A stretch of 64,000 nt of DNA, taken from NCBI GenBank assembly GCA_964422745.1, contig CAYRCK010000011.1, positions 5,068 through 69,067 on the forward strand, given 5' to 3'. Shown here in pieces: positions 38,747-49,145 of the stretch (positions are counted from its first letter, which is position 1; every line of letters starts with the position of its first letter). Position numbers and translations under genes: made by a program. Below the pieces are notes generated by a model, which was not told the DNA's origin, ran no database searches, and worked only from the letters and a program-made list of their open reading frames with translations. This DNA is from an uncultured bacterium (GTDB lineage: Bacteria; Krumholzibacteriota; Krumholzibacteriia; Krumholzibacteriales; Krumholzibacteriaceae).

Positions 38747-40405
38747 ATGGAGTGCTCCATGACTTCAGGCAAAAGATATGTAAAGCTCATGCTTTTGATC
38801 GGCATCGCCGCCATGATCTCGCCTCACGCGATTCAGGCGCAGGATCGCCATTCGGCAAGAATCAGCGCCCTGGGCGGCAAGCACGTCTCGGGGATCATCC
38901 CCGATTTCTACACCGACCTCTTCATCAATCCCGCGTACGCCCTCTTCGCGGACTCGATGACGCTAAGCTACGGCTACAGGAGCGCCGCACTGCCCGCATG
39001 GCCCTACAAGTATCTGGACTATAATCTCGATTTAGAGAACGAAAGTGGTGGGACCTTGCATACGAACGAGTTTATGGCCTACGGCATAGGACTCGGGGGC
39101 TGGAGGCTCGCCGCGGCGGCCGATTGGCGAATATCAGAAGACGAAGGCTCCGATTCATGGCTAACCGACCGCTACACCAGCAACTACTTCGAGTATGTAT
39201 ACCATAATGACTACAGTATCAATAACCTGGAGTTCTGGCGAACCTCGCTGACCGCCGCCCATCCGCTGGGCGGAGGCTCCGCGCTGGGATTCAGGCTCGG
39301 CGGGAAAGGGTACTATAGATCGAACAAGCACCGTTTTAAGTACACAACGGAACAGTTCAACTCCTCCTCCCTATCGAAGACGGATATGGATACAAGAGAT
39401 CGTCTTGATTCAAATACGGAGAGGCACGTCTCAGGATACGCCCAGGCCGGACTGTATCTGGACCGGGGCGGTTCGGGAAGCAGCGAGATCATCCTCAGCC
39501 TGTCGAGAGATCCCGTGTTTTCCGAGCACCACACATATACTCTCTACACCAGCAGGGGATTCAGCAGCCTCCTGGAGGAGATCGATGAGTACAGCTACGA
39601 TCTAGACGAGTGGATGGAACGTCATGATGGAATATCGTGGACATTCTCCCTGACGGGACGCCACAGCTTCCGGTCGGGTCTGAAGCTCTTCGCAAGAGGG
39701 GCCTTCGTTACTTCCACGTACGAGACGGGATGGACGGAGATATTTAACTACTACAGCTGGGATCGTGGAGATGAGAGCAATATGCTGAACACTCTCGGTT
39801 TGCCGGGTGACGGGCGGTCGAAGAACATGCTCTTCATAGCAAAGGCGGGAAAAACTCACTGCATAAGACGTTCCCTGAATATCACTGCCGCGATCAAGTG
39901 CGCCTTAGAGAGGTCCTGGGCGGATGAGAAGGCAGACGGACGGTTCGACATGTTCTCGGAGAAGGAAGTAGTAAACGAATACCGGTACATATCCGTACCG
40001 GTGCCGATCGATATCAATTATTCAGAAACGGATGCCGCTCTTATAGTCCCCGTAGCGGTTGAGTTCGAGCCCTGCAGGTATTTCTCTTGTTTCGCGGGCT
40101 TCTATTCGAGAATCGTATGGAGGGATAGAAATGAGAGGATCTCCTTCGAGATACCCTTCGATCCACTGAGCATAGAGTCCCGGTCCCGGCGTGCTTCCGT
40201 TTATGCGTCCGGCCAGACCGAGTACTTCGATTACGGCGACAGATCCATGAGCGACAGCGGTGAGATCTTCGAAAGCGATTATACCGCGACCTTCGGATTT
40301 TCCCTCCACTACGGTGAAAGGCTGTTCTTCGACGTCTGCACCGGTTCGGATCTCACTCCGGACAACGTAACGTCCATGATAATGGACGTGCGCTACAGAT
40401 TCTAG
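38747..40405 (+). CDS. Secreted protein, probably an outer-membrane beta-barrel
   Basis: Signal peptide (MTSGKRYVKLMLLIGIAAMISPHAIQAQD) and amphipathic beta-strand periodicity. The C-terminus ...DVRYRF ends in Phe, as OMP barrels do. It is divergent from the protease gene. Confidence 0.5.
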   Translation: MECSMTSGKRYVKLMLLIGIAAMISPHAIQAQDRHSARISALGGKHVSGIIPDFYTDLFINPAYALFADSMTLSYGYRSAALPAWPYKYLDYNLDLENESGGTLHTNEFMAYGIGLGGWRLAAAADWRISEDEGSDSWLTDRYTSNYFEYVYHNDYSINNLEFWRTSLTAAHPLGGGSALGFRLGGKGYYRSNKHRFKYTTEQFNSSSLSKTDMDTRDRLDSNTERHVSGYAQAGLYLDRGGSGSSEIILSLSRDPVFSEHHTYTLYTSRGFSSLLEEIDEYSYDLDEWMERHDGISWTFSLTGRHSFRSGLKLFARGAFVTSTYETGWTEIFNYYSWDRGDESNMLNTLGLPGDGRSKNMLFIAKAGKTHCIRRSLNITAAIKCALERSWADEKADGRFDMFSEKEVVNEYRYISVPVPIDINYSETDAALIVPVAVEFEPCRYFSCFAGFYSRIVWRDRNERISFEIPFDPLSIESRSRRASVYASGQTEYFDYGDRSMSDSGEIFESDYTATFGFSLHYGERLFFDVCTGSDLTPDNVTSMIMDVRYRF

Positions 40406-42129
40406 GGGCCACCGCCCGGCTCGAATTCCTCGGGCAGCTTCCGATTCATGATGAGCTCGCTGCGCCGGTTGAACCTGCGTCCGATCATCCTGTAAAGGAG
40501 GCGCGCGGCGGTATCCTCGACGGTTCTCCCCGAGAACAATCCCCGTAGAAGCCCGATCCTTCCAGGCATGTGAATCATGTGGACGCCTTCGGGATCATCG
40601 ATGCCGGCCAGCTCGCATGCGACCTCGAACGCCCTGTCGATCCCGCCCGTCCCGTCCACGAGACCCACCTCTTCGGCCTGACGCCCTGTCCATACACGAC
40701 CCCTTGCGACGGAATCGACCTCACCGATCCTCATATCGCGGAACCGCGCTATCTCCTCTATCCAGTTCCTGTAGAACTCCCAGTGCTCCTCCCTCAGCAC
40801 ATCCCATTCCGACTCAGAGAAATCACGGTAATCGGATAAAATGAGCGCATTGTCCCCGACGCCCATCTCATCCTTGGTAACGCCTATCTTACCGTAAAGG
40901 CCCCTCATGTTCATCTTTCCTGTGATAGATCCTATAGAGCCCGTTATGCTCGAAGGCATGGCTATTATGCGGTCGGCCCGGTACGCGATCTCGTATCCCC
41001 CCGATGCCGCCACGTCGGACATCGACACGACAACCGGCTTCACCCTCGATGTCATCTCCACCTCTCGCGATATCATGCCGCCCGCGATCCCGTCACCGCC
41101 CGGTGAATCGATCCTGAGGATGACGGCCTTTATCCTGCCGTTCCTGCGGGCCCTTTTGAGCTCTCTTATCACGGTCTCCGTTCCCGCCGTCTGACCGGTG
41201 AACGCGTCCCACCCCCTTTCCCCCATGACTATCTCCCCCTGGGCATGAACAACAGCCACCGCGGGCCCCGAACCCGACCCGTACGCCGGGCCATAACCTT
41301 TGAGGTAGTCAGACGCCGGAATTATGCCCACATCCCCGCCCTCGAGGGAACCCCTCACCTGATCCCAGTGGCGCATCCCGTCTATCAAGCCGTTCTCGAG
41401 CGCTCTTCTCGGGCTGTAGAGCCCCCTGTCGATCCACGTCCTGACGGTGTCCTCGCTACGCCCGCGGTCGGAGGCGACAGAGGCGACGAAGCCCTCGTAC
41501 ATATCCTCAAGCAGCCACTGGGTCATCCGCCTCGACTCCGGCGTTCGCCCGGTTTCGGTGATCATTTCTGCCGCCGACTTGTAATCCCCTATCCTGTGGA
41601 TGTTCGGGTTGATGCCGAGCTTGTCCAGCATGCCGCGGATGAACACCGCACTCGAGGCCGGACCCGGTATAACCAGGTAACCGCTCGGAGGCATGAAGAT
41701 CGAATCTGCGCCGCATGCGAGCATGTAATGGTTGCCGACGAGAACCGGTGAATATGCGATGACCTTTTTCCCCGTTTCCCTGAACGAGCCGAGAGCCGCC
41801 CTTATCTCCCCGCATTTCGCCGCACCGGCTCCCGACGGGAAGATACGCAGTATCAGAGCCTGGACCCGGCCGTCCTCCGAAGCCCTCTTTATCGTCGACA
41901 GGATACCGGTCAGATCCGGCTCCCTCTCCGTGAAGATCGATAGTGGTGTGGAGTAGGGCTGATAGTCCAGAAGCTCTCCATCGATATCGATGACGACCAC
42001 GGCATTTCCGCCTTTCAACGCGGAGCCCGCATCCTTCCCCATCAGTCCTATCAGCGCGACAACCGGAACAACGACCAGAAATAGCGCGAAGAACAGGAAC
42101 AACAACAGCTGTTTCCATTGTCTGGACAT
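40402..42129 (-). CDS. sppA: Signal peptide peptidase SppA, 67K type (two tandem S49 domains)
   Basis: N-terminal TM anchor and two ClpP/crotonase-like S49 repeats, with the Ser motif in MSDVAASGGYEIAY. Confidence 0.8.
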   Translation of the reverse strand: MSRQWKQLLLFLFFALFLVVVPVVALIGLMGKDAGSALKGGNAVVVIDIDGELLDYQPYSTPLSIFTEREPDLTGILSTIKRASEDGRVQALILRIFPSGAGAAKCGEIRAALGSFRETGKKVIAYSPVLVGNHYMLACGADSIFMPPSGYLVIPGPASSAVFIRGMLDKLGINPNIHRIGDYKSAAEMITETGRTPESRRMTQWLLEDMYEGFVASVASDRGRSEDTVRTWIDRGLYSPRRALENGLIDGMRHWDQVRGSLEGGDVGIIPASDYLKGYGPAYGSGSGPAVAVVHAQGEIVMGERGWDAFTGQTAGTETVIRELKRARRNGRIKAVILRIDSPGGDGIAGGMISREVEMTSRVKPVVVSMSDVAASGGYEIAYRADRIIAMPSSITGSIGSITGKMNMRGLYGKIGVTKDEMGVGDNALILSDYRDFSESEWDVLREEHWEFYRNWIEEIARFRDMRIGEVDSVARGRVWTGRQAEEVGLVDGTGGIDRAFEVACELAGIDDPEGVHMIHMPGRIGLLRGLFSGRTVEDTAARLLYRMIGRRFNRRSELIMNRKLPEEFEPGGGP

Positions 42130-42204
42130 AACTCGCCCCCCTTGGTTTCGAACGAGATCCGCTTGTATCCATGATGGTGATCTAATCTTAGAAGTCGGCC
42201 GTCT

Positions 42205-44640
42205 TCAGCTCTTTGCTGCGATCTCCTGCCTCATCGCGATGAGAACCGCCAGCGAGATCGAGGCCAGCTTCGAACGGGCCGAATCCCCCCTGGACGTCAG
42301 TATTATAGGAACGCCCCCGCCTACAACCGCACCGGCCAGGTTGGCGCCCGAGGAAACGGTCAGGGTCTTGTATACGACATTCCCGGCTTCTATATCGGGC
42401 ATGAGCAGGATATCGGCGTTTCCACTAATCTTTCCCGTGTAATGCTTCTCCTCGGCCGAGCGTGGATCCAACGCCACATCGAGCGACAGCGGACCCTCCA
42501 CTATGCAGTCCGTGCGGTCGCGGTACCCCTCCGCAAACTCTCCCGCCAGTATGGAGGACTGCACACTTGGATTCCTGGTCTCCACGGCGGAGATAACCGC
42601 GACCTTAGGCGTTTTTATATTGAGGTAACCGGCCACGGCAAGAGCATTCTCCAGGATCAACTTCTTCAACTCCTGATCGGGATGAGGCGTCACGGCCGCA
42701 TCGGTCACTATGAGCAGCTTGGGATACGCCGGAAACTGGAAAACTCCGACATGACTGTATACCTTTCCCTTCTCGAGCCGTCCGCTGCTCTTCATATAAC
42801 GCAGGGCGCCTCTCATGATCTCATCCGTTTTCACTCCACCCTTCATCAGAAGATCGACCTGGCCCGAATCAAGGAGCTCTATCGCCTTCTCAACTGGTTT
42901 GTCGGTATCGATGATCATGTAATTTTCATCGTCGACCTTGATGTCGTACTCCCACGCCAGCTTGTTCACTTCGTAGAAATCGCCCACGAGCAGGAATTTC
43001 GCTATAGGATACCTTCCCTCCTCGTTGGCCTGTTTGGCGGCGGCGACGGCATCCTCGTTCTCGGCTCCGACCAAAGCTATCCGGGGGGCCCTGTGCATGG
43101 CGACGAGGGACCTGGCCGCGTAGATAACCTCATCGAGGCTCGTGATGGGCTCGTTCTCCTTCTTGCGAAGATGGGGATGCGCGAATATTTCAGTATCCAG
43201 AAACTCCTTCTCACCCGCCCGCTTCTTCCTCAGGGCGTCCCGCTCGACCCTGTAGTCCTTCAATTCCTCACGGAGAAACCGCGCCCTCATGTGCCCGGCT
43301 ATCATGGACTCGTGCTCCACGGAGCCCGGAACGACGGCCACCGGGAAATAAGGATAAAGCTTGCGTCTTATAATCCCGGAGAACTCGGTGCTCTTGGACA
43401 GACCTCCGGTCAATATCACGGCATCGATCGCACCCTCTACGGCGGCCAGCTTCATTACCTCCCCGGCGATATTGCGGGCCAGAAAGTCCACGACAACCTT
43501 GATCTTCTCCCGCTGCCTCTGAACCGCCCCCGTATCCATGAAATGCATCAGGGCGCGGAAATCGTTAGTGCCGGCCAAGTCGACAAGCCCCCCTTCTCCG
43601 AACAGGTACCTACTGAGCTCCTGTAGGGTCAGTTTCCTGCTGTCCAATGCTCTCATCAGGCAGTCGAGAGGAATGTTGCCGCACCTGTTCGCGCTGGGCA
43701 CCCCGGAGAAGGCGTTCACTATATCGACTATCTCCCCGTTCTTATGCCTGCCTATGGAGATGCCCCCCCCTATGTGAGCGCTCACTGTAGTGATCTCATC
43801 ACGCTCGTAGCCGAGCAGGTGGCAGAAGAGCCCGTGAACAGCCCTGTGGTTCAGATAGTGGGCCCCCGCCCCGTCTCTCAGAATCTTCCTTATACCGGTC
43901 AATCTGGCCGTGATCTCCATCTCGTCCGTTGCGACCGGATCGCTCATCGTTATCAGCAGATCTCCCCCTCCGGCGAGCCTCTCTCCGAGCTTCAATCCAA
44001 TCGGGATCGCCATGTTGGATGCATGATCGATCCTCGGTTCCTCGAGATCCTTCACCATCTCGTCACAGACCTCGTAAGTGCCGGACGGCACCGGTTGGAC
44101 AAAGCCGCCGCGGCACACTATTCCGGTTAGCCCCCCGGGGACTATACCACGCTCGTCGATCCACTCCACTATAGCCTTTGTTCTGTTCTCGACACCGTCG
44201 TCGAAATCAGGAGGAATATGAACCTCGTCGGCCGCTTCGAGTTCGAAGCCCCTGAAAAGCGCCAGCTTCGTAGAAGTCGATCCGGGATTCACGCACAGCA
44301 CCAGCTCCGATTCCGCCTCTTCGGGGATCTTCTCCCTTCCGTACAGGGCCGAGATGATCCTTCGTGTACCGCTCTTCGATGACATTATGAGTTGGATCAG
44401 GTGCGAGAACAGGTTCCCCCACGCCTCTTCCCAGTCGGAGGACAGGATGGGCGGCCTGGAGGAACTCACAACGGACCTAAGAAGCTCGAACAACTCCTCC
44501 TCCGTTGCGGCCTTGCCGTAATGAACAGAGTTAACGGCCTCCGCTACTTCACGCTCGATATCATTCGATCCGCCTATGCCGCGTATCACCCGAAGCAGTG
44601 CATTCAATTGTGATTCTGCGATTCTGAGCTGGTCTTCCAA
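42205..44640 (-). CDS. Fused butyrate kinase (Buk) and phosphate butyryltransferase (Ptb), with an N-terminal domain of about 115 aa of unknown function
   Basis: Residues about 120-480 carry ASKHA/Buk motifs (LVLCVNPGSTSTKLALF, SAHIGGGISIG, ILTGGLSKS). Residues about 500-811 form the PTA_PTB family (MIIDTDKPVEKAIELLDSGQVDLLMKGG ... AVISAVETRN ... GNADILLMPDIEAGNVVYK). One continuous 811 aa frame has no internal stop. Confidence 0.8.
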   Translation of the reverse strand: MEDQLRIAESQLNALLRVIRGIGGSNDIEREVAEAVNSVHYGKAATEEELFELLRSVVSSSRPPILSSDWEEAWGNLFSHLIQLIMSSKSGTRRIISALYGREKIPEEAESELVLCVNPGSTSTKLALFRGFELEAADEVHIPPDFDDGVENRTKAIVEWIDERGIVPGGLTGIVCRGGFVQPVPSGTYEVCDEMVKDLEEPRIDHASNMAIPIGLKLGERLAGGGDLLITMSDPVATDEMEITARLTGIRKILRDGAGAHYLNHRAVHGLFCHLLGYERDEITTVSAHIGGGISIGRHKNGEIVDIVNAFSGVPSANRCGNIPLDCLMRALDSRKLTLQELSRYLFGEGGLVDLAGTNDFRALMHFMDTGAVQRQREKIKVVVDFLARNIAGEVMKLAAVEGAIDAVILTGGLSKSTEFSGIIRRKLYPYFPVAVVPGSVEHESMIAGHMRARFLREELKDYRVERDALRKKRAGEKEFLDTEIFAHPHLRKKENEPITSLDEVIYAARSLVAMHRAPRIALVGAENEDAVAAAKQANEEGRYPIAKFLLVGDFYEVNKLAWEYDIKVDDENYMIIDTDKPVEKAIELLDSGQVDLLMKGGVKTDEIMRGALRYMKSSGRLEKGKVYSHVGVFQFPAYPKLLIVTDAAVTPHPDQELKKLILENALAVAGYLNIKTPKVAVISAVETRNPSVQSSILAGEFAEGYRDRTDCIVEGPLSLDVALDPRSAEEKHYTGKISGNADILLMPDIEAGNVVYKTLTVSSGANLAGAVVGGGVPIILTSRGDSARSKLASISLAVLIAMRQEIAAKS

Positions 44641-44925
44641 AACTCACCTTTTCTCTGAAGCGGCAGGGAGGGCGCTGCGTTTCGAAATACTATCCGCTCC
44701 CCGCAATCTTGATATAGGATTTGTTATTAACTTCATCGACGGATCCATGGCTTCTCCTCAAACAGCCTTTCGAATCGGGATTCTTCCATACACCGAGCCG
44801 GCGCTGGAACTCAGGGATCGATAATCCGCACGGAACCTGGAACCGCGGTATAACCGATGCCCCGGATTCGGATGATAAATATATACTCCCTCAGAATAAA
44901 ACCCAAGTTTTATCGAATTGTCAGG

Positions 44926-46089
44926 TCATCGGTTCCGGTCCTGCAGCAGAGGAAGTATCCCACGGCGGTAATTTGAGATCATATCCTGTGTGTAGTGCTC
45001 CAGCCTCTCTTTCTCCGGTCCCGATAAATAAATCCTCATATCCCTGAGATCCGAGTCTTCGATCGAGCTGTCTCCCAAGAATACGCCGCCGAGGGCTCCT
45101 CCATAGCCGCTCTGCTCTATCCCCTTACCTGCCAGTTCGGCCCAGAGAAGGGTCCAGCTCTTTGTAACATCCTGCTGGTTGTAACCACCGCCGCCAAGGG
45201 CCACTATCGCCGGAAATTCCCCGTGCAGGATCTCCACGGCCTCGATATAACCGTTATTCGTCAACCTGAGATGTGTAAGGGGATCAGTGGAGAGCATGTC
45301 GGTGCCGAACTGACCGACTATAACCTCGGGGTCGAAGATCCGAAGCGCATCCATAACGATATCATTGAACAGACGTAGAAAGTTATCGTCATCGGTGCCC
45401 GGCTCGAGCGGCACGTTGATGTTATAACCCATTGCATCCCCCTCACCAACCTCCCAATCGAATCCGCCCCAGGGGAAGAGTGTCTTGCCTGACTCGTGCA
45501 TCGAGACGGTCAGAACCGATCTATCGCCGAAATACGCATGCTGGACGGCATCTCCATGGTGGGCGTCTATATCGACATACGCGACCCTTCTGCCCCTCTT
45601 CCTCAACTCGTCTATGGCGATGGCAACATCGTTAACGTAGCAAAATCCCGCCGCCCTGTCCGGGTAGGCATGATGAAAACCGCCGCACGGGTTGAACGCG
45701 CTTCCGCCCGAATCAGCAACGAGCCTGGCCGCGGTCAGGCTCGCGGTGGCTGAAAGGGCCGAAAACTCGAAGACGCCCTCGAACACTGGATTCTCCGCGG
45801 GTCCTATACCGTGGTGGATCATATCGAGGTCCACATCATCGCCCCTGTCCGCCCTTCTCAGCGCCTCGATGTAATCCTTTGTATGAAACCGTTCGAGCAC
45901 ACGATCCTCTGCATTCTCGATCTCGACGACGCTTATGCCTGCGCCGTCGAGCAGACCTCTCCTTCTGCACATTTCGTACACGGATGTCTGCCTGTCCGGC
46001 CTGAACGGATGCTCCTGACTGAACTGGAACTCGCCGCACCTTCTGGCTATCACGAATGAGGCCTTCGCACCCGATGGTCGGTCATCCAT
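44926..46089 (-). CDS. Histone-deacetylase-superfamily protein (AcuC / acetoin-utilisation-type lysine deacetylase)
   Basis: HDAC motifs GGFHHAYPDRAAGFCYVNDVAIAI, DIDAHHGDAVQHAYF and GGGGY. The start is set at MDDRPSG, whose ATG overlaps the stop of the upstream CoAT-GNAT gene by 1 nt. Confidence 0.8.
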   Translation of the reverse strand: MDDRPSGAKASFVIARRCGEFQFSQEHPFRPDRQTSVYEMCRRRGLLDGAGISVVEIENAEDRVLERFHTKDYIEALRRADRGDDVDLDMIHHGIGPAENPVFEGVFEFSALSATASLTAARLVADSGGSAFNPCGGFHHAYPDRAAGFCYVNDVAIAIDELRKRGRRVAYVDIDAHHGDAVQHAYFGDRSVLTVSMHESGKTLFPWGGFDWEVGEGDAMGYNINVPLEPGTDDDNFLRLFNDIVMDALRIFDPEVIVGQFGTDMLSTDPLTHLRLTNNGYIEAVEILHGEFPAIVALGGGGYNQQDVTKSWTLLWAELAGKGIEQSGYGGALGGVFLGDSSIEDSDLRDMRIYLSGPEKERLEHYTQDMISNYRRGILPLLQDRNR

Positions 46090-47951
46090 CACTTCTTCTC
46101 CGAGAAATCGACTCTCACGATATATACTCCGTCCTCCAACCTGCTGTGCAGCGGATAACCGCACTCGTGAAAAACGTGCATCATCTTCTTGTTCTGTCCC
46201 AGAACATCGGCCTTGAACCCCCTGATCCCCATCTCCAGCGCTATATCGATCAAATGTTGCATGAGATGTGTTCCGATACCACGGTTCTGCCAGTTGTCCC
46301 CGACGAGAAACGCAACCTCCGCGTAGTTGTCCGACGGATCGTGCTTGAACCTCCCGATCGCTACTATCTCCTCGTTTTCCGGCTCCCCCAGCAATCCAAC
46401 GATCGCCATCTCCTCACTGTAATCGATGTTCACCATCGGCTGGATCTTCTCGTGCGGCATGGCCTTTACGAGATTGAAGAAACGATAGTAGACGCTCTCG
46501 TCGCTCAAAGAATAGAAGAACTCGCGCTCCATCGCCTCGTCGATGGGCTTTATGGGCCTGAAGAATACGCTGACATCACCGAAATCCTTCACATGCTCGT
46601 ATTTCTCAGGGTAGAAACGGCCGACCTCCGTCAACGGCATCTGGTCCATATGAACGATATTTCTCTTCTTGGCATAGCTGAGAAGATCGTCCCTGAAATC
46701 CGGGTGCGTAATGCTGATGAGAGCGAGGGCCCTCTCCCTGAGGTTCTTTCCATGAAGGTTCGCAATTCCGTACTCGGTGACTATGTAGTGCACATCCCCC
46801 CTTGACGTCACGACCCCGGCACCCTGGTCCAGGTGCGCGACGATCCGTGAGATGGTCCCTCCCTTAGCCGTGGACGGAAGGACTATGATCGGTTTTCCGC
46901 CCTTCGACCGCGCCGCGCCGCGCACGAAATCGACCTGCCCCCCTATACCCGAGTAAAAATACTCACCGATCGAATCGGCGCACACCTGACCGGTGAGATC
47001 GACCTGCATGGCGGCATTGATGGAGATCATCTTGTCGTTCCTGGAGATTATGAATGGATCGTTCGTATAGTCGCAGGGATGGAACTCGATCAGGGGATTA
47101 TCGTCGACGAAATCGTATAGCCTTTTCGTGCCCATGCAGAACGTGGCGATGATCTTGCCGTTGTGAATGCTCTTCTTCCTGTTATTTATGACCCCGGACT
47201 CGACCAGGTCTATTATCCCGTCGGAGAACATCTCTGTATGGATTCCTATATCCTTCTTGTCAACGAGGAACGAAAGTATCGCATTCGGGATCATGCCTAT
47301 CCCGGCCTGGATCGTCGCTCCATCACCTATCAATCTCGATACATGCTGCCCTATCCTGGCGGCCACATCATCCGGTTCGGGTGGCGACAAAGTGAGAAGC
47401 GGCATGTCGCTTTCCACTATATGGTCGATGTCCTTGACGTGGATGAAGCAATCTCCAAGGGTCCTGGGCATCTGCTTGTTGACCTCGGCGATGACCAGCC
47501 TTGCGCTCTCGGCACCCGCCTTCACGACATCGACCGAGACTCCGAGGGAGCAGAAGCCGTAGCTGTCCGGGGGTGCCACCTGTATGAAGGCGACATCGAT
47601 CTTGAGGCGCCCCGATCGCAGCAGTGCCGGCAATTCGGAGAGGAATATCGGAGTGTACTCCGCCCTTCCCTCGTTGACAGCATCCCTCACATTCTGTCCT
47701 ATGAAGAACGCGTTCTGCCTGAACGGCTTGCTCAGCACCGACTCGGCGTACGGGCTCGTTCCCAGCTCTATGAGATTGATCGTCTCGTGATCCTGGATGT
47801 ATTTGCCCTTATCGATGAGCATCTTGATCAGTGTTTGGGGTTCGGCCGCGCCGGAGCCGATGAAGATACGGCTGCCGGGATTGATAAGCTTGAAGACCTC
47901 GTCCACGGTGCATTTCTTTCGCTCGTATATATCATTAACCTTTTCAATCAT
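46089..47951 (-). CDS. Fusion of a 4-hydroxybutyrate/butyryl-CoA:acetate CoA-transferase-family domain to a C-terminal GNAT N-acetyltransferase
   Basis: The N-terminal 440 aa or so are co-linear with the Cat2/AbfT CoA-transferase family (GSGAAEPQTL ... GIGMIPNAIL ... MGTKRLYDF ... SGIGGQVDFVRGA ... VTEYGIA). The C-terminal 170 aa or so form a GNAT fold with the acetyl-CoA motif A (QNRGIGTHLMQHLID). Confidence 0.8.
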   Translation of the reverse strand: MIEKVNDIYERKKCTVDEVFKLINPGSRIFIGSGAAEPQTLIKMLIDKGKYIQDHETINLIELGTSPYAESVLSKPFRQNAFFIGQNVRDAVNEGRAEYTPIFLSELPALLRSGRLKIDVAFIQVAPPDSYGFCSLGVSVDVVKAGAESARLVIAEVNKQMPRTLGDCFIHVKDIDHIVESDMPLLTLSPPEPDDVAARIGQHVSRLIGDGATIQAGIGMIPNAILSFLVDKKDIGIHTEMFSDGIIDLVESGVINNRKKSIHNGKIIATFCMGTKRLYDFVDDNPLIEFHPCDYTNDPFIISRNDKMISINAAMQVDLTGQVCADSIGEYFYSGIGGQVDFVRGAARSKGGKPIIVLPSTAKGGTISRIVAHLDQGAGVVTSRGDVHYIVTEYGIANLHGKNLRERALALISITHPDFRDDLLSYAKKRNIVHMDQMPLTEVGRFYPEKYEHVKDFGDVSVFFRPIKPIDEAMEREFFYSLSDESVYYRFFNLVKAMPHEKIQPMVNIDYSEEMAIVGLLGEPENEEIVAIGRFKHDPSDNYAEVAFLVGDNWQNRGIGTHLMQHLIDIALEMGIRGFKADVLGQNKKMMHVFHECGYPLHSRLEDGVYIVRVDFSEKK

Positions 47952-48215
47952 CGTACACCCCCTGAGCGGTTCATATACCCCGATTCCGGCACGGTTTCGA
48001 TCACGAAAGGATAATGATCCAACGATGAAGATAGTTCAAGAGAAGAGAGCATGCAAATCTTGATCTGGCAAAAACTATACGATTCAATTAGATTAGCGAA
48101 GAGGACGGATCGCCGGTATGGCGCGAAGAACCGGACACCGCGCTCCGTGATCCCCTCGGAAGGGCCGTGTGCTCCTTTTTTCCGTTTTATCAACGCATCT
48201 CGAAAGGATCGTGAT

Positions 48216-49145
48216 TTGGAAAGGATTTTCGGACCGGTGCCGTCGAGACGGCTGGGCAGGTCGCTCGGCATAGACGTGGTTCCATACAAAACTTGTACAT
48301 TCGACTGCATCTACTGCGAATGCGGGGGCACGACGAACAGAACATGCAGCCGAAGCGAATTCTATCCCCTCGACGATATACTCGAAGAACTGGAGGGAAG
48401 GCTCTCCGAGATCCCGCAGATGCCCGATGTGGTAACCCTGTCGGGAGCGGGCGAGCCGACATTGTACTCGAGAACGGGAGAGCTGATAAGGCGGGTGAAG
48501 GGGGTGACCGGCATCCCTGTGGCCGTCATCACGAACAGCTCTCTCCTGTCCCGCCCCGAGCTCAGGGAAGAGGTGTCGTTCGCCGACATCGTTCTGCCGT
48601 CACTTGACTCCGTCATCGAGGAGACCTTCTCTTCGATGAACCGTCCGCACGAGGAATGCGACATAGGCGAGATACAGGCAGGACTCGAGGAATTCACACG
48701 GGTGTACACGGGAAAGGTCTACCTGGAAATAATGCTTCTGGAGGGATTCAATACGGATGAGAGAAACCTGTCTGAGCTGAAACTTGCCATCGAGGGGCTG
48801 AGGGTCGACGAGGTGCAGCTCAACACGGCCGTAAGGCCCGGGACGGTAAAGGGCATCGGGCCGCTGGACAAAGAGAGCCTGATAAGCATAAAAGAATACT
48901 TCGGCTCCGCATGCGAGGTTGTCGCCGAAACACCTGCCAGGGCCTCACACGAGGACCTCGCAGCCGAGCAGAAAGTCATCTCGATGCTGGAACGGCGTCC
49001 GTGCACGGCAGAGGATATGCACAACTCACTCGGGATCCCCGTCCCCGGGCTCGCCAAGCTGCTCTCGGAGCTGGTCTCGAGAGGAACGATAAAGGCCGAA
49101 TCCCACGGCGGGAAGATATTCTACACGGCGATAATTCGTGGATGA
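48216..49145 (+). CDS. Radical SAM protein (CX3CX2C; COG0731-like, function unknown)
   Basis: The motif KTCTFDCIYCEC follows the N-terminal signature FGPVPSRRLGRSLGIDVVP. The start is tentatively the TTG at 48216, with AAAGGA seven nt upstream. The ORF track begins at an ATG at 48051, probably too far upstream. Confidence 0.65.
   Translation: MERIFGPVPSRRLGRSLGIDVVPYKTCTFDCIYCECGGTTNRTCSRSEFYPLDDILEELEGRLSEIPQMPDVVTLSGAGEPTLYSRTGELIRRVKGVTGIPVAVITNSSLLSRPELREEVSFADIVLPSLDSVIEETFSSMNRPHEECDIGEIQAGLEEFTRVYTGKVYLEIMLLEGFNTDERNLSELKLAIEGLRVDEVQLNTAVRPGTVKGIGPLDKESLISIKEYFGSACEVVAETPARASHEDLAAEQKVISMLERRPCTAEDMHNSLGIPVPGLAKLLSELVSRGTIKAESHGGKIFYTAIIRG

Follow-up and report, generated by a model that had tools for sequence, protein, structure and literature searches.

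A natural fusion of butyrate kinase-type and phosphotransbutyrylase-type domains, encoded beside lysine acylation genes in Krumholzibacteriota and other bacteria

Introduction

Kinase/phosphotransacylase pairs are textbook two-gene systems of substrate-level phosphorylation; the clostridial genes for phosphotransbutyrylase (Ptb) and butyrate kinase (Buk), ptb and buk, are separate and lie in the order ptb then buk. In a 64,000-nucleotide stretch of DNA from an uncultured bacterium of the Krumholzibacteriaceae (GenBank assembly GCA_964422745.1, contig CAYRCK010000011.1, positions 5,068 to 69,067; the whole stretch is referred to here as the window), a single open reading frame (ORF) specifies domains of both types, with the Buk domain ahead of the Ptb domain and an additional N-terminal domain in front of both. 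The locus raises the questions of whether such a gene is real, what chemistry its product would catalyze, and why it lies beside genes of the kind that attach acyl groups to, and remove them from, lysine residues. The last question has a chemical side, in that acyl-phosphates, the intermediates shared by Buk and Ptb, are themselves chemical acyl donors for lysine acylation.

The gene was first pointed out in an earlier note made by inspection of the DNA, the coordinates of which, together with the product length of 811 residues, the N-terminal extension of about 111-115 residues and the Buk to Ptb order, were all found to be accurate on ORF and domain mapping. The explanation that best accounts for the results as a whole, and to which we assign a probability of about 0.7, is that the product of the gene is a true bifunctional enzyme, which works within a conserved cluster tied to reversible lysine acylation.

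Results

Reality of the fusion

The 811-residue protein reads as three parts (Table 1), i.e. a helical N-terminal domain, a Buk-type ASKHA kinase and a Ptb-type phosphotransacylase, and a Pfam scan of it returns Acetate_kinase and PTA_PTB. Its TTG start lies one codon (GTT) after an in-frame TGA and has a Shine-Dalgarno-like sequence, AGGTGA, on its 5' side. The possibility that needs to be dealt with before any other is that the gene is an artefact, either a buk/ptb pair joined by assembly or by a frameshift, or a gene that really starts further downstream, its N-terminal region being read-through that is not translated. The frame is broken inside the gene in five of 82 related loci (L028, L029, L062, L076 and L078), in two of them in the linker region, and this might be taken to favor such a reading. 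However, a 100% identical product (P0001), with the same neighbors, is encoded in three independent JGI metagenome assemblies, and one continuous frame, unbroken between the halves, is kept in more than 110 full-length homologs, which come both from independent assemblies and from isolate genomes. The window protein has no methionine at the Buk boundary, and the alignment of 112 full-length members is essentially gap-free from residue 21 to the C terminus, with the N termini of the homologs matching the TTG start. The differences between the window and 11 relatives at the three codon positions have a coding pattern in the N-terminal region (0.39/0.28/0.62), as they do in the Buk (0.28/0.16/0.56) and Ptb (0.18/0.12/0.55) regions. 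Because the identical ORF recurs in three assemblies, more than 110 homologs are intact and the N terminus is conserved and coding, the artefact reading is effectively refuted, and with it both the stop or frameshift between the halves and the upstream read-through that the earlier note had named as ways in which it could be wrong. The results confirm a real, old and conserved tripartite protein.

The five frame breaks all lie at different positions. The break in L076, a long-read metagenome-assembled genome (MAG), results from a run of C residues that is one base short, and adding the base back recovers the conserved linker peptide. The idea that the breaks represent natural split versions of the gene was rejected, given that they are scattered and that the one inspected is a homopolymer-length error; those in L028, L029, L062 and L078 could be sequencing errors or pseudogenes. 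The Buk to Ptb order in a single ORF is common to the window and at least 112 homologs, and the canonical ptb-buk operon organization, with two genes and ptb first, is not the one present.

Family distribution

The fusion is no peculiarity of this DNA, but one member of a widespread family that is already in the databases, where its members are named 'butyrate kinase' or 'phosphate acyltransferase', i.e. after one half only. A protein search gave 185 relatives, and nearly all of the 120 matches listed are 790-865 residues long and have both Pfam domains in the same order; at least 112 full-length relatives, of about 808-822 residues, share both the order and the N-terminal extension. In species-representative genomes, 80 loci with the gene were found, from at least four phyla. 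MAGs of Krumholzibacteriota, Latescibacterota and UBP1 encode proteins with 58-70% identity to the window protein, and identities of 44-52% are found both in Desulfobacterales, including the isolates Desulfospira joergensenii DSM 10085, Desulfobacter vibrioformis, D. latus and D. curvatus, and in MAGs of Myxococcota (Polyangia, Kofleriaceae). For the comparisons that follow, relatives at least 56% identical to the window protein (76 proteins) are termed clade A and the rest (36 proteins) clade B. Neither NCBIfam nor Pfam contains a model of the whole fusion or of its N-terminal part. Three sequences, L030, P0048 and P0078, which are 64-70% identical to the window protein and the relatives of which are mostly Krumholzibacteriota, have labels such as 'Patescibacteria group', 'Bacteroidales' or 'Bathyarchaeia'; these labels probably reflect mis-binned contigs in public MAGs.

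The two catalytic halves

The earlier note held that the ORF encodes a full Buk and a full Ptb, and both halves are indeed complete and keep the residues that are invariant in the family. Over residues 112-463 the butyrate kinase subfamily profile NF002834 is matched from position 3 to 355 of 357 with 246 bits against a cutoff of 222, and PF00871 is matched with 55 bits (cutoff 22). By sequence, residues 114-487 align end to end with Thermotoga maritima Buk2 (PDB 1SAZ, residues 4-376), including the ASKHA motifs NPGSTSTK (118-125), HASN (206-209), AHIGGGIS (288-295) and LTGGL (410-414). Residues H206, S208, N209, D234, E240, R246, R319, E442 and E444, among others, are invariant in 34 diverse homologs, and none of the 76 clade-A proteins departs from the canonical phosphate-1 motif, NPGSTSTK. 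Other catalytic residues of the kinase stay invariant in clade B as well (homologs P0085-P0120; loci L032-L083, from Desulfobacterales, Myxococcota and Latescibacterota).

The Ptb half scores 120 bits with PF01515 (PTA_PTB; cutoff 24), the phosphate butyryltransferase profile covers residues 515-802, and residues 499-802 align by sequence with Ptb (PDB 7VG9, residues 22-318 of 321). All of the Ptb-specific NCBIfam models cover their full length yet score below cutoff (e.g. NF004472, with 240 against 399), and the model PRK08190, for a bifunctional enoyl-CoA hydratase/phosphate acetyltransferase, scores 222 bits over residues 502-807. The expected active-site motifs are present as EGPLSLDVA (715-723), ADILLMPDIEAGN (742-754) and TSRGDS (782-787); of these, EGPLSLD, ADIxxMPxIExGN and TSRxDS are shared with 7VG9, and EGPLSLD, ADILxMPDIxAGN and TSRGDS are invariant in the family, with S783, R784, G785 and D786, among others, unchanged in the same 34 homologs. 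No other region of the protein is as well conserved as the Ptb half (identity 0.76 within clade A and 0.54 between clades), which appears to be a Ptb-like member of the PTA_PTB superfamily, rather than a Ptb equivalog.

The scores of the two halves against the solved Buk2/Ptb pair are 181 and 157 bits, and no solved chain spans both halves. Conservation extends to the linker and the C-terminal helix of the Buk domain, where the identity over residues 463-501 is 0.63 within the window's clade and 0.42 between clades. A full-length AlphaFold2 (AF2) model has a mean predicted local distance difference test (pLDDT) value of 86.7 and a predicted template modelling score (pTM) of 0.65; its pLDDT falls below 50 at residues 488-492, and the Ptb fold begins at about residue 502.

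The N-terminal helical domain

The N-terminal extension, described in the earlier note as a domain of no recognizable type, gave no match when its 111 residues were searched on their own against Pfam (E values up to 10), NCBIfam and PDB sequence profiles. An AF2 model of residues 1-112, built on an alignment of 49 sequences, is a helical bundle (mean pLDDT 91.4, pTM 0.81) with five main helices (residues 2-22, 26-40, 47-60, 68-87 and 91-100) and a short turn at 107-110; the same helices are present in the full-length model with pLDDT values of 84-94. A Foldseek comparison of the model with the PDB gave nothing significant, the best match having an E value of 0.89 and all matches being generic helical bundles with TM values of at most 0.47. 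A likeness to bromodomains (Foldseek E value of about 2-3) was considered and is not evidence of anything.

When a profile of the N-terminal region was used to search 1.84 billion representative proteins, 26 matches were obtained. Nearly all of the 19 that were retrieved continue into the NPGSTSTK kinase start or a Desulfobacter-type variant of it, and most of the others end at a contig end. The strong matches inspected are fragments or frameshifted copies of the same fusion family, and the domain is, within the library sampled, exclusive to that family. A word-index search of a set of 5.8 billion proteins with the N-terminal alignment gave no match and also missed the family itself, and hence is uninformative.

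The N-terminal sequence is of two types. Clade A has a near-invariant signature, KPPxLSxxWEEAWGNLFSxL, at residues 62-81, within which P63, W70 and W74 are found in 100% and F78 in 99% of the proteins; clade B differs in having W35, L61, E85 and R97-L98-L99. N-terminal identity is 0.43 within clade A, 0.30 within clade B and only 0.13 between clades, compared with 0.46-0.54 between clades for the catalytic halves. An hhalign comparison of the two types gave a weak match, barely above noise, over the last 30 residues only (E value 0.017). Judged by their position, length and helical character, the two types are probably homologous. No lysine is conserved in this domain among the 112 homologs; the one clade-typical lysine, K62, is present in 76% of clade-A proteins and is an arginine in the window protein. 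Because the N-terminal domain changes far more rapidly in sequence than the catalytic halves do, and because its sequence type switches with the set of neighboring genes (see below), it would seem to be a module for protein-protein interaction or oligomerization, rather than a catalytic one.

Conserved gene neighborhood

Synteny was assessed by tblastn searches with the neighbors in the window against 82 non-redundant loci. Upstream of the fusion gene in the window are genes for an AcuC/HDLP-like zinc-dependent deacylase of the class-I histone deacetylase family (HDAC) and for a fusion of a CoA-transferase-like domain with a Pat-type GNAT domain (CoAT-GNAT). The HDAC product has Aquifex HDLP (PDB 1C3R, 217 bits) as its best PDB match, with class-I HDACs also near. 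In CoAT-GNAT, the CoA-transferase domain is apparently intact (494 bits to the 4-hydroxybutyrate-CoA transferase 9VAG), and the GNAT domain matches the Pat-type protein acetyltransferases 9IT0, 4NXY and 4ORF, as well as the NCBIfam Pat model NF058543. This architecture is common, with at least 120 full-length relatives that are annotated only as 'GNAT family N-acetyltransferase'; a 2021 review lists five bacterial lysine-acetyltransferase domain types, among which the combination of a CoA-transferase with a GNAT is not included (PMC8556138).

In clade A, the CoAT-GNAT gene is upstream on the same strand in 23 of 23 loci with sufficient flanking sequence, and in 26 of 26 loci the HDAC gene, again on the same strand, separates it from the Buk-Ptb gene. 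In clade B, a gene for an AMP-forming acyl-CoA synthetase (Acs; ACAS_N/AMP-binding) is immediately upstream in 34 of 38 loci, abutting or overlapping the Buk-Ptb gene in L002 and L087, and CoAT-GNAT is downstream in nine of 34 loci (12 loci in all). The clade-B Acs proteins keep the C-terminal lysine motif PRTxTGK; the C-terminal GK lysine of Acs belongs to the class of site that is acetylated by Pat-type GNATs (PMC8556138). No Acs homolog was found in the 64-kb window, nor in any of 25 clade-A loci. Thus, of the parts of an Acs-type acylation module, the Pat-type GNAT and the deacylase are present in the window, and Acs with its GK motif is present in clade B only. More distant CoAT-GNAT genes, at loci that lack Buk-Ptb, often adjoin an Acs gene as well or lie close to one, although one such gene does not. 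The earlier note had suggested that the N-terminal domain might be the target of the neighboring acylation pair; the functional link to the GNAT and HDAC genes is strongly supported by the synteny, but the N-terminal domain has no conserved lysine that could serve as such a target.

Discussion

Proposed chemistry and substrate

From homology and the established enzymology of Ptb and Buk, a two-step reaction can be proposed. The C-terminal Ptb-type domain would interconvert a short-chain acyl-CoA and phosphate with an acyl-phosphate and CoA, and the central Buk-type domain would interconvert the acyl-phosphate and ADP with the free acid and ATP, the net reaction on the one polypeptide being acyl-CoA + ADP + Pi <-> acid + ATP + CoA. 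The labile acyl-phosphate would thus be made and consumed on the same molecule. The cluster would gather alternative routes between acids and their CoA esters, comprising the CoA-transferase, the kinase/phosphotransacylase and, in the distant clade, the AMP-forming synthetase. The Pat-type GNAT and, in the window's clade, the AcuC-like deacylase would govern this short-chain acyl-CoA node. With respect to the direction of that relationship, the synteny makes it most likely that the node is governed by reversible lysine acylation, or else feeds it. The model for such a node is acsA-acuABC and Pat/Acs (PMC8556138), and since the AcuA-AcsA complex reacts to acetyl-phosphate and CoA in addition to acetyl-CoA (PMC11255334), an enzyme that converts acyl-phosphate and acyl-CoA into one another would be a logical partner.

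Several points weigh against the reading of the protein as a bifunctional enzyme of an acylation-linked cluster, or limit how far it can be taken. The butyrate kinase equivalog model TIGR02707 scores 217 against a cutoff of 289, and the phosphate butyryltransferase model TIGR02706, although matched over profile positions 10-294 of 294, scores 243 against 410. Because these cutoffs are missed, the protein belongs to a divergent subfamily, the acyl substrate of which is not fixed by the assignment and for which 'butyrate' is only a family name. The phosphate-1 motif is degenerate in 19 of 36 clade-B proteins (e.g. NPGTVSTR, VESSIASTK and NPAPPPTK), and kinase activity may therefore not be universal in the family, being altered or lost in some lineages. 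The proposed role of the N-terminal domain rests on its evolutionary pattern only, and its apparent restriction to this family rests on imperfect sampling, since the representative library, clustered at 50% identity, gave one full-length member and so under-samples the family. As to channelling of butyryl-phosphate, which the earlier note had expected, it remains inference only, given the pTM of the full-length model and its low-confidence stretch in the linker; the domain folds are predicted with confidence, but their mutual arrangement is not, and the model does not demonstrate a fixed channel between the active sites. The synteny is silent on whether the enzyme is the target, the supplier or a metabolic partner of the GNAT/HDAC pair, and no paper describing a natural Buk-Ptb fusion was found in the literature searched.

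Alternative explanations

The names of the halves invite the view that the protein is a Buk/Ptb devoted to butyrate alone, catalyzing the final two steps of butyrate fermentation, from butyryl-CoA to butyrate and ATP. Butyrate kinase and phosphate butyryltransferase are its best matches among both hidden Markov models and PDB entries, and the CoA-transferase domain encoded nearby is of the 4-hydroxybutyrate/butyryl-CoA:acetate type. However, the equivalog cutoffs are not reached, and thiolase, hbd, crt and bcd-etf genes are absent both from the conserved neighborhood and from the ORFs of the window that were scanned. Members of the family are, moreover, conserved among Desulfobacter species, which specialize in acetate and are not known to use butyrate. 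Ptb/Buk homologs have been proposed to act on other acyl groups, a role with aryl-acetyl-CoA having been hypothesized for HpdJ/HpdK (PMC13285125). On balance we consider butyrate specificity, which the earlier note took for granted, to be unlikely. It is more improbable still that one half is non-catalytic and binds acyl-CoA or acyl-phosphate, making the protein a single-activity enzyme or a signalling protein. Such a role would have precedents, in that PTA_PTB domains occur in other fusions, with malic enzymes among the PDB matches and PRK08190 among the profiles; the PTA-like domain of hybrid malic enzymes is regulatory. The degenerate phosphate-1 motif in half of the clade-B proteins would also fit. 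Yet the kinase motif is canonical throughout the window's own clade, the other kinase residues are invariant even in clade B, and conservation is highest in the Ptb half, the S-R-G-D and EGPLSxD motifs of which are intact.

A further possibility is that the enzyme serves an acylation circuit, rather than bulk metabolism, by supplying or buffering acyl donors for the CoAT-GNAT writer and the HDAC eraser, and/or by being their regulated substrate, in the place of Acs next to acuABC-type genes. In clade A the CoAT-GNAT and HDAC genes accompany the fusion gene without exception, in clade B the fusion gene has Acs on one side and CoAT-GNAT on the other, and the cluster in the window sits among unrelated genes. 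Lysine acetyltransferase and deacetylase genes classically flank their target, as in Bacillus subtilis acsA-acuABC (PMC8556138, PMC11255334), and acetyl-phosphate together with CoA can drive acetylation of Acs (PMC11255334). Against this, the argument is purely one of guilt by association, CoAT-GNAT also occurs without Buk-Ptb, and the Buk-Ptb protein has neither a PX4GK-like acceptor motif nor a conserved lysine specific to clade A. Seven lysines are conserved in both clades, but all are in the catalytic halves, where a catalytic or binding role is their simplest explanation; a search for clade-specific conserved lysines as acylation sites, in the N-terminal domain or elsewhere, found none that was useful. 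A dedicated circuit of this kind is accordingly doubtful. The same tentative standing applies to its most elaborate form, in which Buk-Ptb would provide the metabolic side of a lysine-acylation cassette complete in itself, setting the acyl-donor pool from free acids for CoAT-GNAT or acting as the writer/eraser target in place of Acs, with the N-terminal domain docking the partners (HDAC and the acetyltransferase, or Acs, according to clade).

Relationship to known systems

The bifunctional enzyme proposed here shares its two domain families with clostridial ptb-buk, as represented by Ptb 7VG9 and the T. maritima Buk2 structures 1SAZ and 1X9J, with full-length alignment and the same predicted two-step chemistry via an acyl-phosphate. 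It differs in being one polypeptide in the order Buk to Ptb, in its extra 111-residue helical domain and in missing the equivalog cutoffs; the context differs too, acylation genes surrounding the fusion in contrast to the butyryl-CoA pathway of the clostridial genes. The phosphotransacylase fold is likewise joined to partner domains in the E. coli-type long Pta, the MaeB-type hybrid malic enzymes and PRK08190, but in the present family the partner is the cognate acyl kinase, such that two consecutive steps are joined. The N-terminal domain is also unrelated to those of Pta, as judged by the lack of a Pfam match. ADP-forming acyl-CoA synthetases (ACDs) catalyze the same net reaction, i.e. acyl-CoA + ADP + Pi <-> acid + ATP + CoA, within a single enzyme, but their fold and mechanism are unrelated, employing a phospho-histidine relay where the fusion would employ free acyl-phosphate. 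In Pat enzymes of types I and II, the domain to which the GNAT is joined is ACD-like but catalytically inactive (PMC8556138).

With respect to the regulation of Acs by Pat/AcuA and AcuC/CobB, as in B. subtilis acsA-acuABC and Salmonella enterica pat, a GNAT and an AcuC-like deacylase are likewise found beside an enzyme that interconverts an acid and its CoA ester. The clade-B clusters resemble acsA-acuABC in that Acs itself, with its GK lysine motif, is present, whereas the place beside these genes in the window's clade is taken by Buk-Ptb, rather than Acs, and the GNAT carries a CoA-transferase domain. What sets the family apart from every described system that we found is its naturally fused state, with the halves in reversed order, its additional domain with no relatives and its fixed association with acylation enzymes; the halves themselves are of known superfamilies.

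That the fusion gene sits next to protein-acylation genes suggests a link between short-chain acid metabolism and protein acylation, and the family may provide an entry point into how anaerobes couple their pools of short-chain acids, acyl-CoA and acyl-phosphate to protein acylation. Being a natural and phylogenetically broad fusion, it is also a ready model for tests of acyl-phosphate channelling. The practice of naming these proteins after one half only can mislead pathway inference in MAGs of Krumholzibacteriota, Latescibacterota, Desulfobacterales and Myxococcota.

Other features of the locus

The features of the cluster are collected in Table 1.

Table 1. Coordinates of the fusion gene, its parts and its neighbors in the window
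Feature	Coordinates	Strand	Product or residues	Position	Basis
Whole fusion gene (N-terminal domain, Buk and Ptb)	42205..44640	-	811 aa, TTG start, stop included		ORF list, domain profiles
N-terminal family-specific helical domain	44308..44640	-	aa 1-111		AF2 model, gap-free in 112 homologs
Butyrate kinase-type ASKHA acyl kinase domain	43198..44307	-	aa 112-481, including C-terminal helix 463-481		NF002834, 1SAZ alignment
Inter-domain linker	43138..43197	-	aa 482-501		Conserved sequence, with low-confidence stretch 488-492
Phosphotransbutyrylase-type phosphate acyltransferase domain	42205..43137	-	aa 502-811 and stop		PF01515, TIGR02706, 7VG9 alignment
Class-I HDAC/AcuC/HDLP-like zinc deacylase	44926..46089	-		Upstream neighbor	PF00850 260 bits
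4-Hydroxybutyrate-CoA-transferase-like (aa ~6-433) and Pat-type GNAT (aa ~460-616) fusion	46089..47951	-	620 aa	Upstream neighbor	Pfam, NCBIfam
SppA-type S49 signal-peptide peptidase	40402..42129	-		Downstream neighbor	PF01343 212 bits
Radical-SAM protein, divergent	48051..49145	+			PF04055 48.5 bits; weak TrmB-like winged-helix C-terminal match, PF01978 17.6 bits (below cutoff of 25.6)

The SppA gene is downstream of the fusion in 13 of 29 clade-A loci; its conservation is loose, and it probably does not belong to the module. The radical-SAM gene is upstream on the opposite strand in 16 of 20 clade-A loci. Around the cluster, the rest of the window encodes unrelated functions, namely ABC-2 transporters, peptidases and polysaccharide genes. 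The HDAC and Buk-Ptb genes are separated by 285 nt (44641-44925), compared with about 21 nt to 2.7 kb in relatives, as estimated from high-scoring segment pairs. Rfam models match nothing in this gap, and a scan of the cluster (41900-48400) for promoters and terminators gave no more sites than shuffled controls, with none in the gap. The mechanically called start of the HDAC gene, a GTG at 46164, would overlap the upstream gene by 76 nt, and both homologs and the JGI gene calls support instead the ATG at 46089, giving a product of 387 residues. This ATG overlaps the stop codon of the CoAT-GNAT gene by 1 nt, and the one-base overlap of start and stop therefore suggests that the CoAT-GNAT and HDAC genes are translationally coupled.

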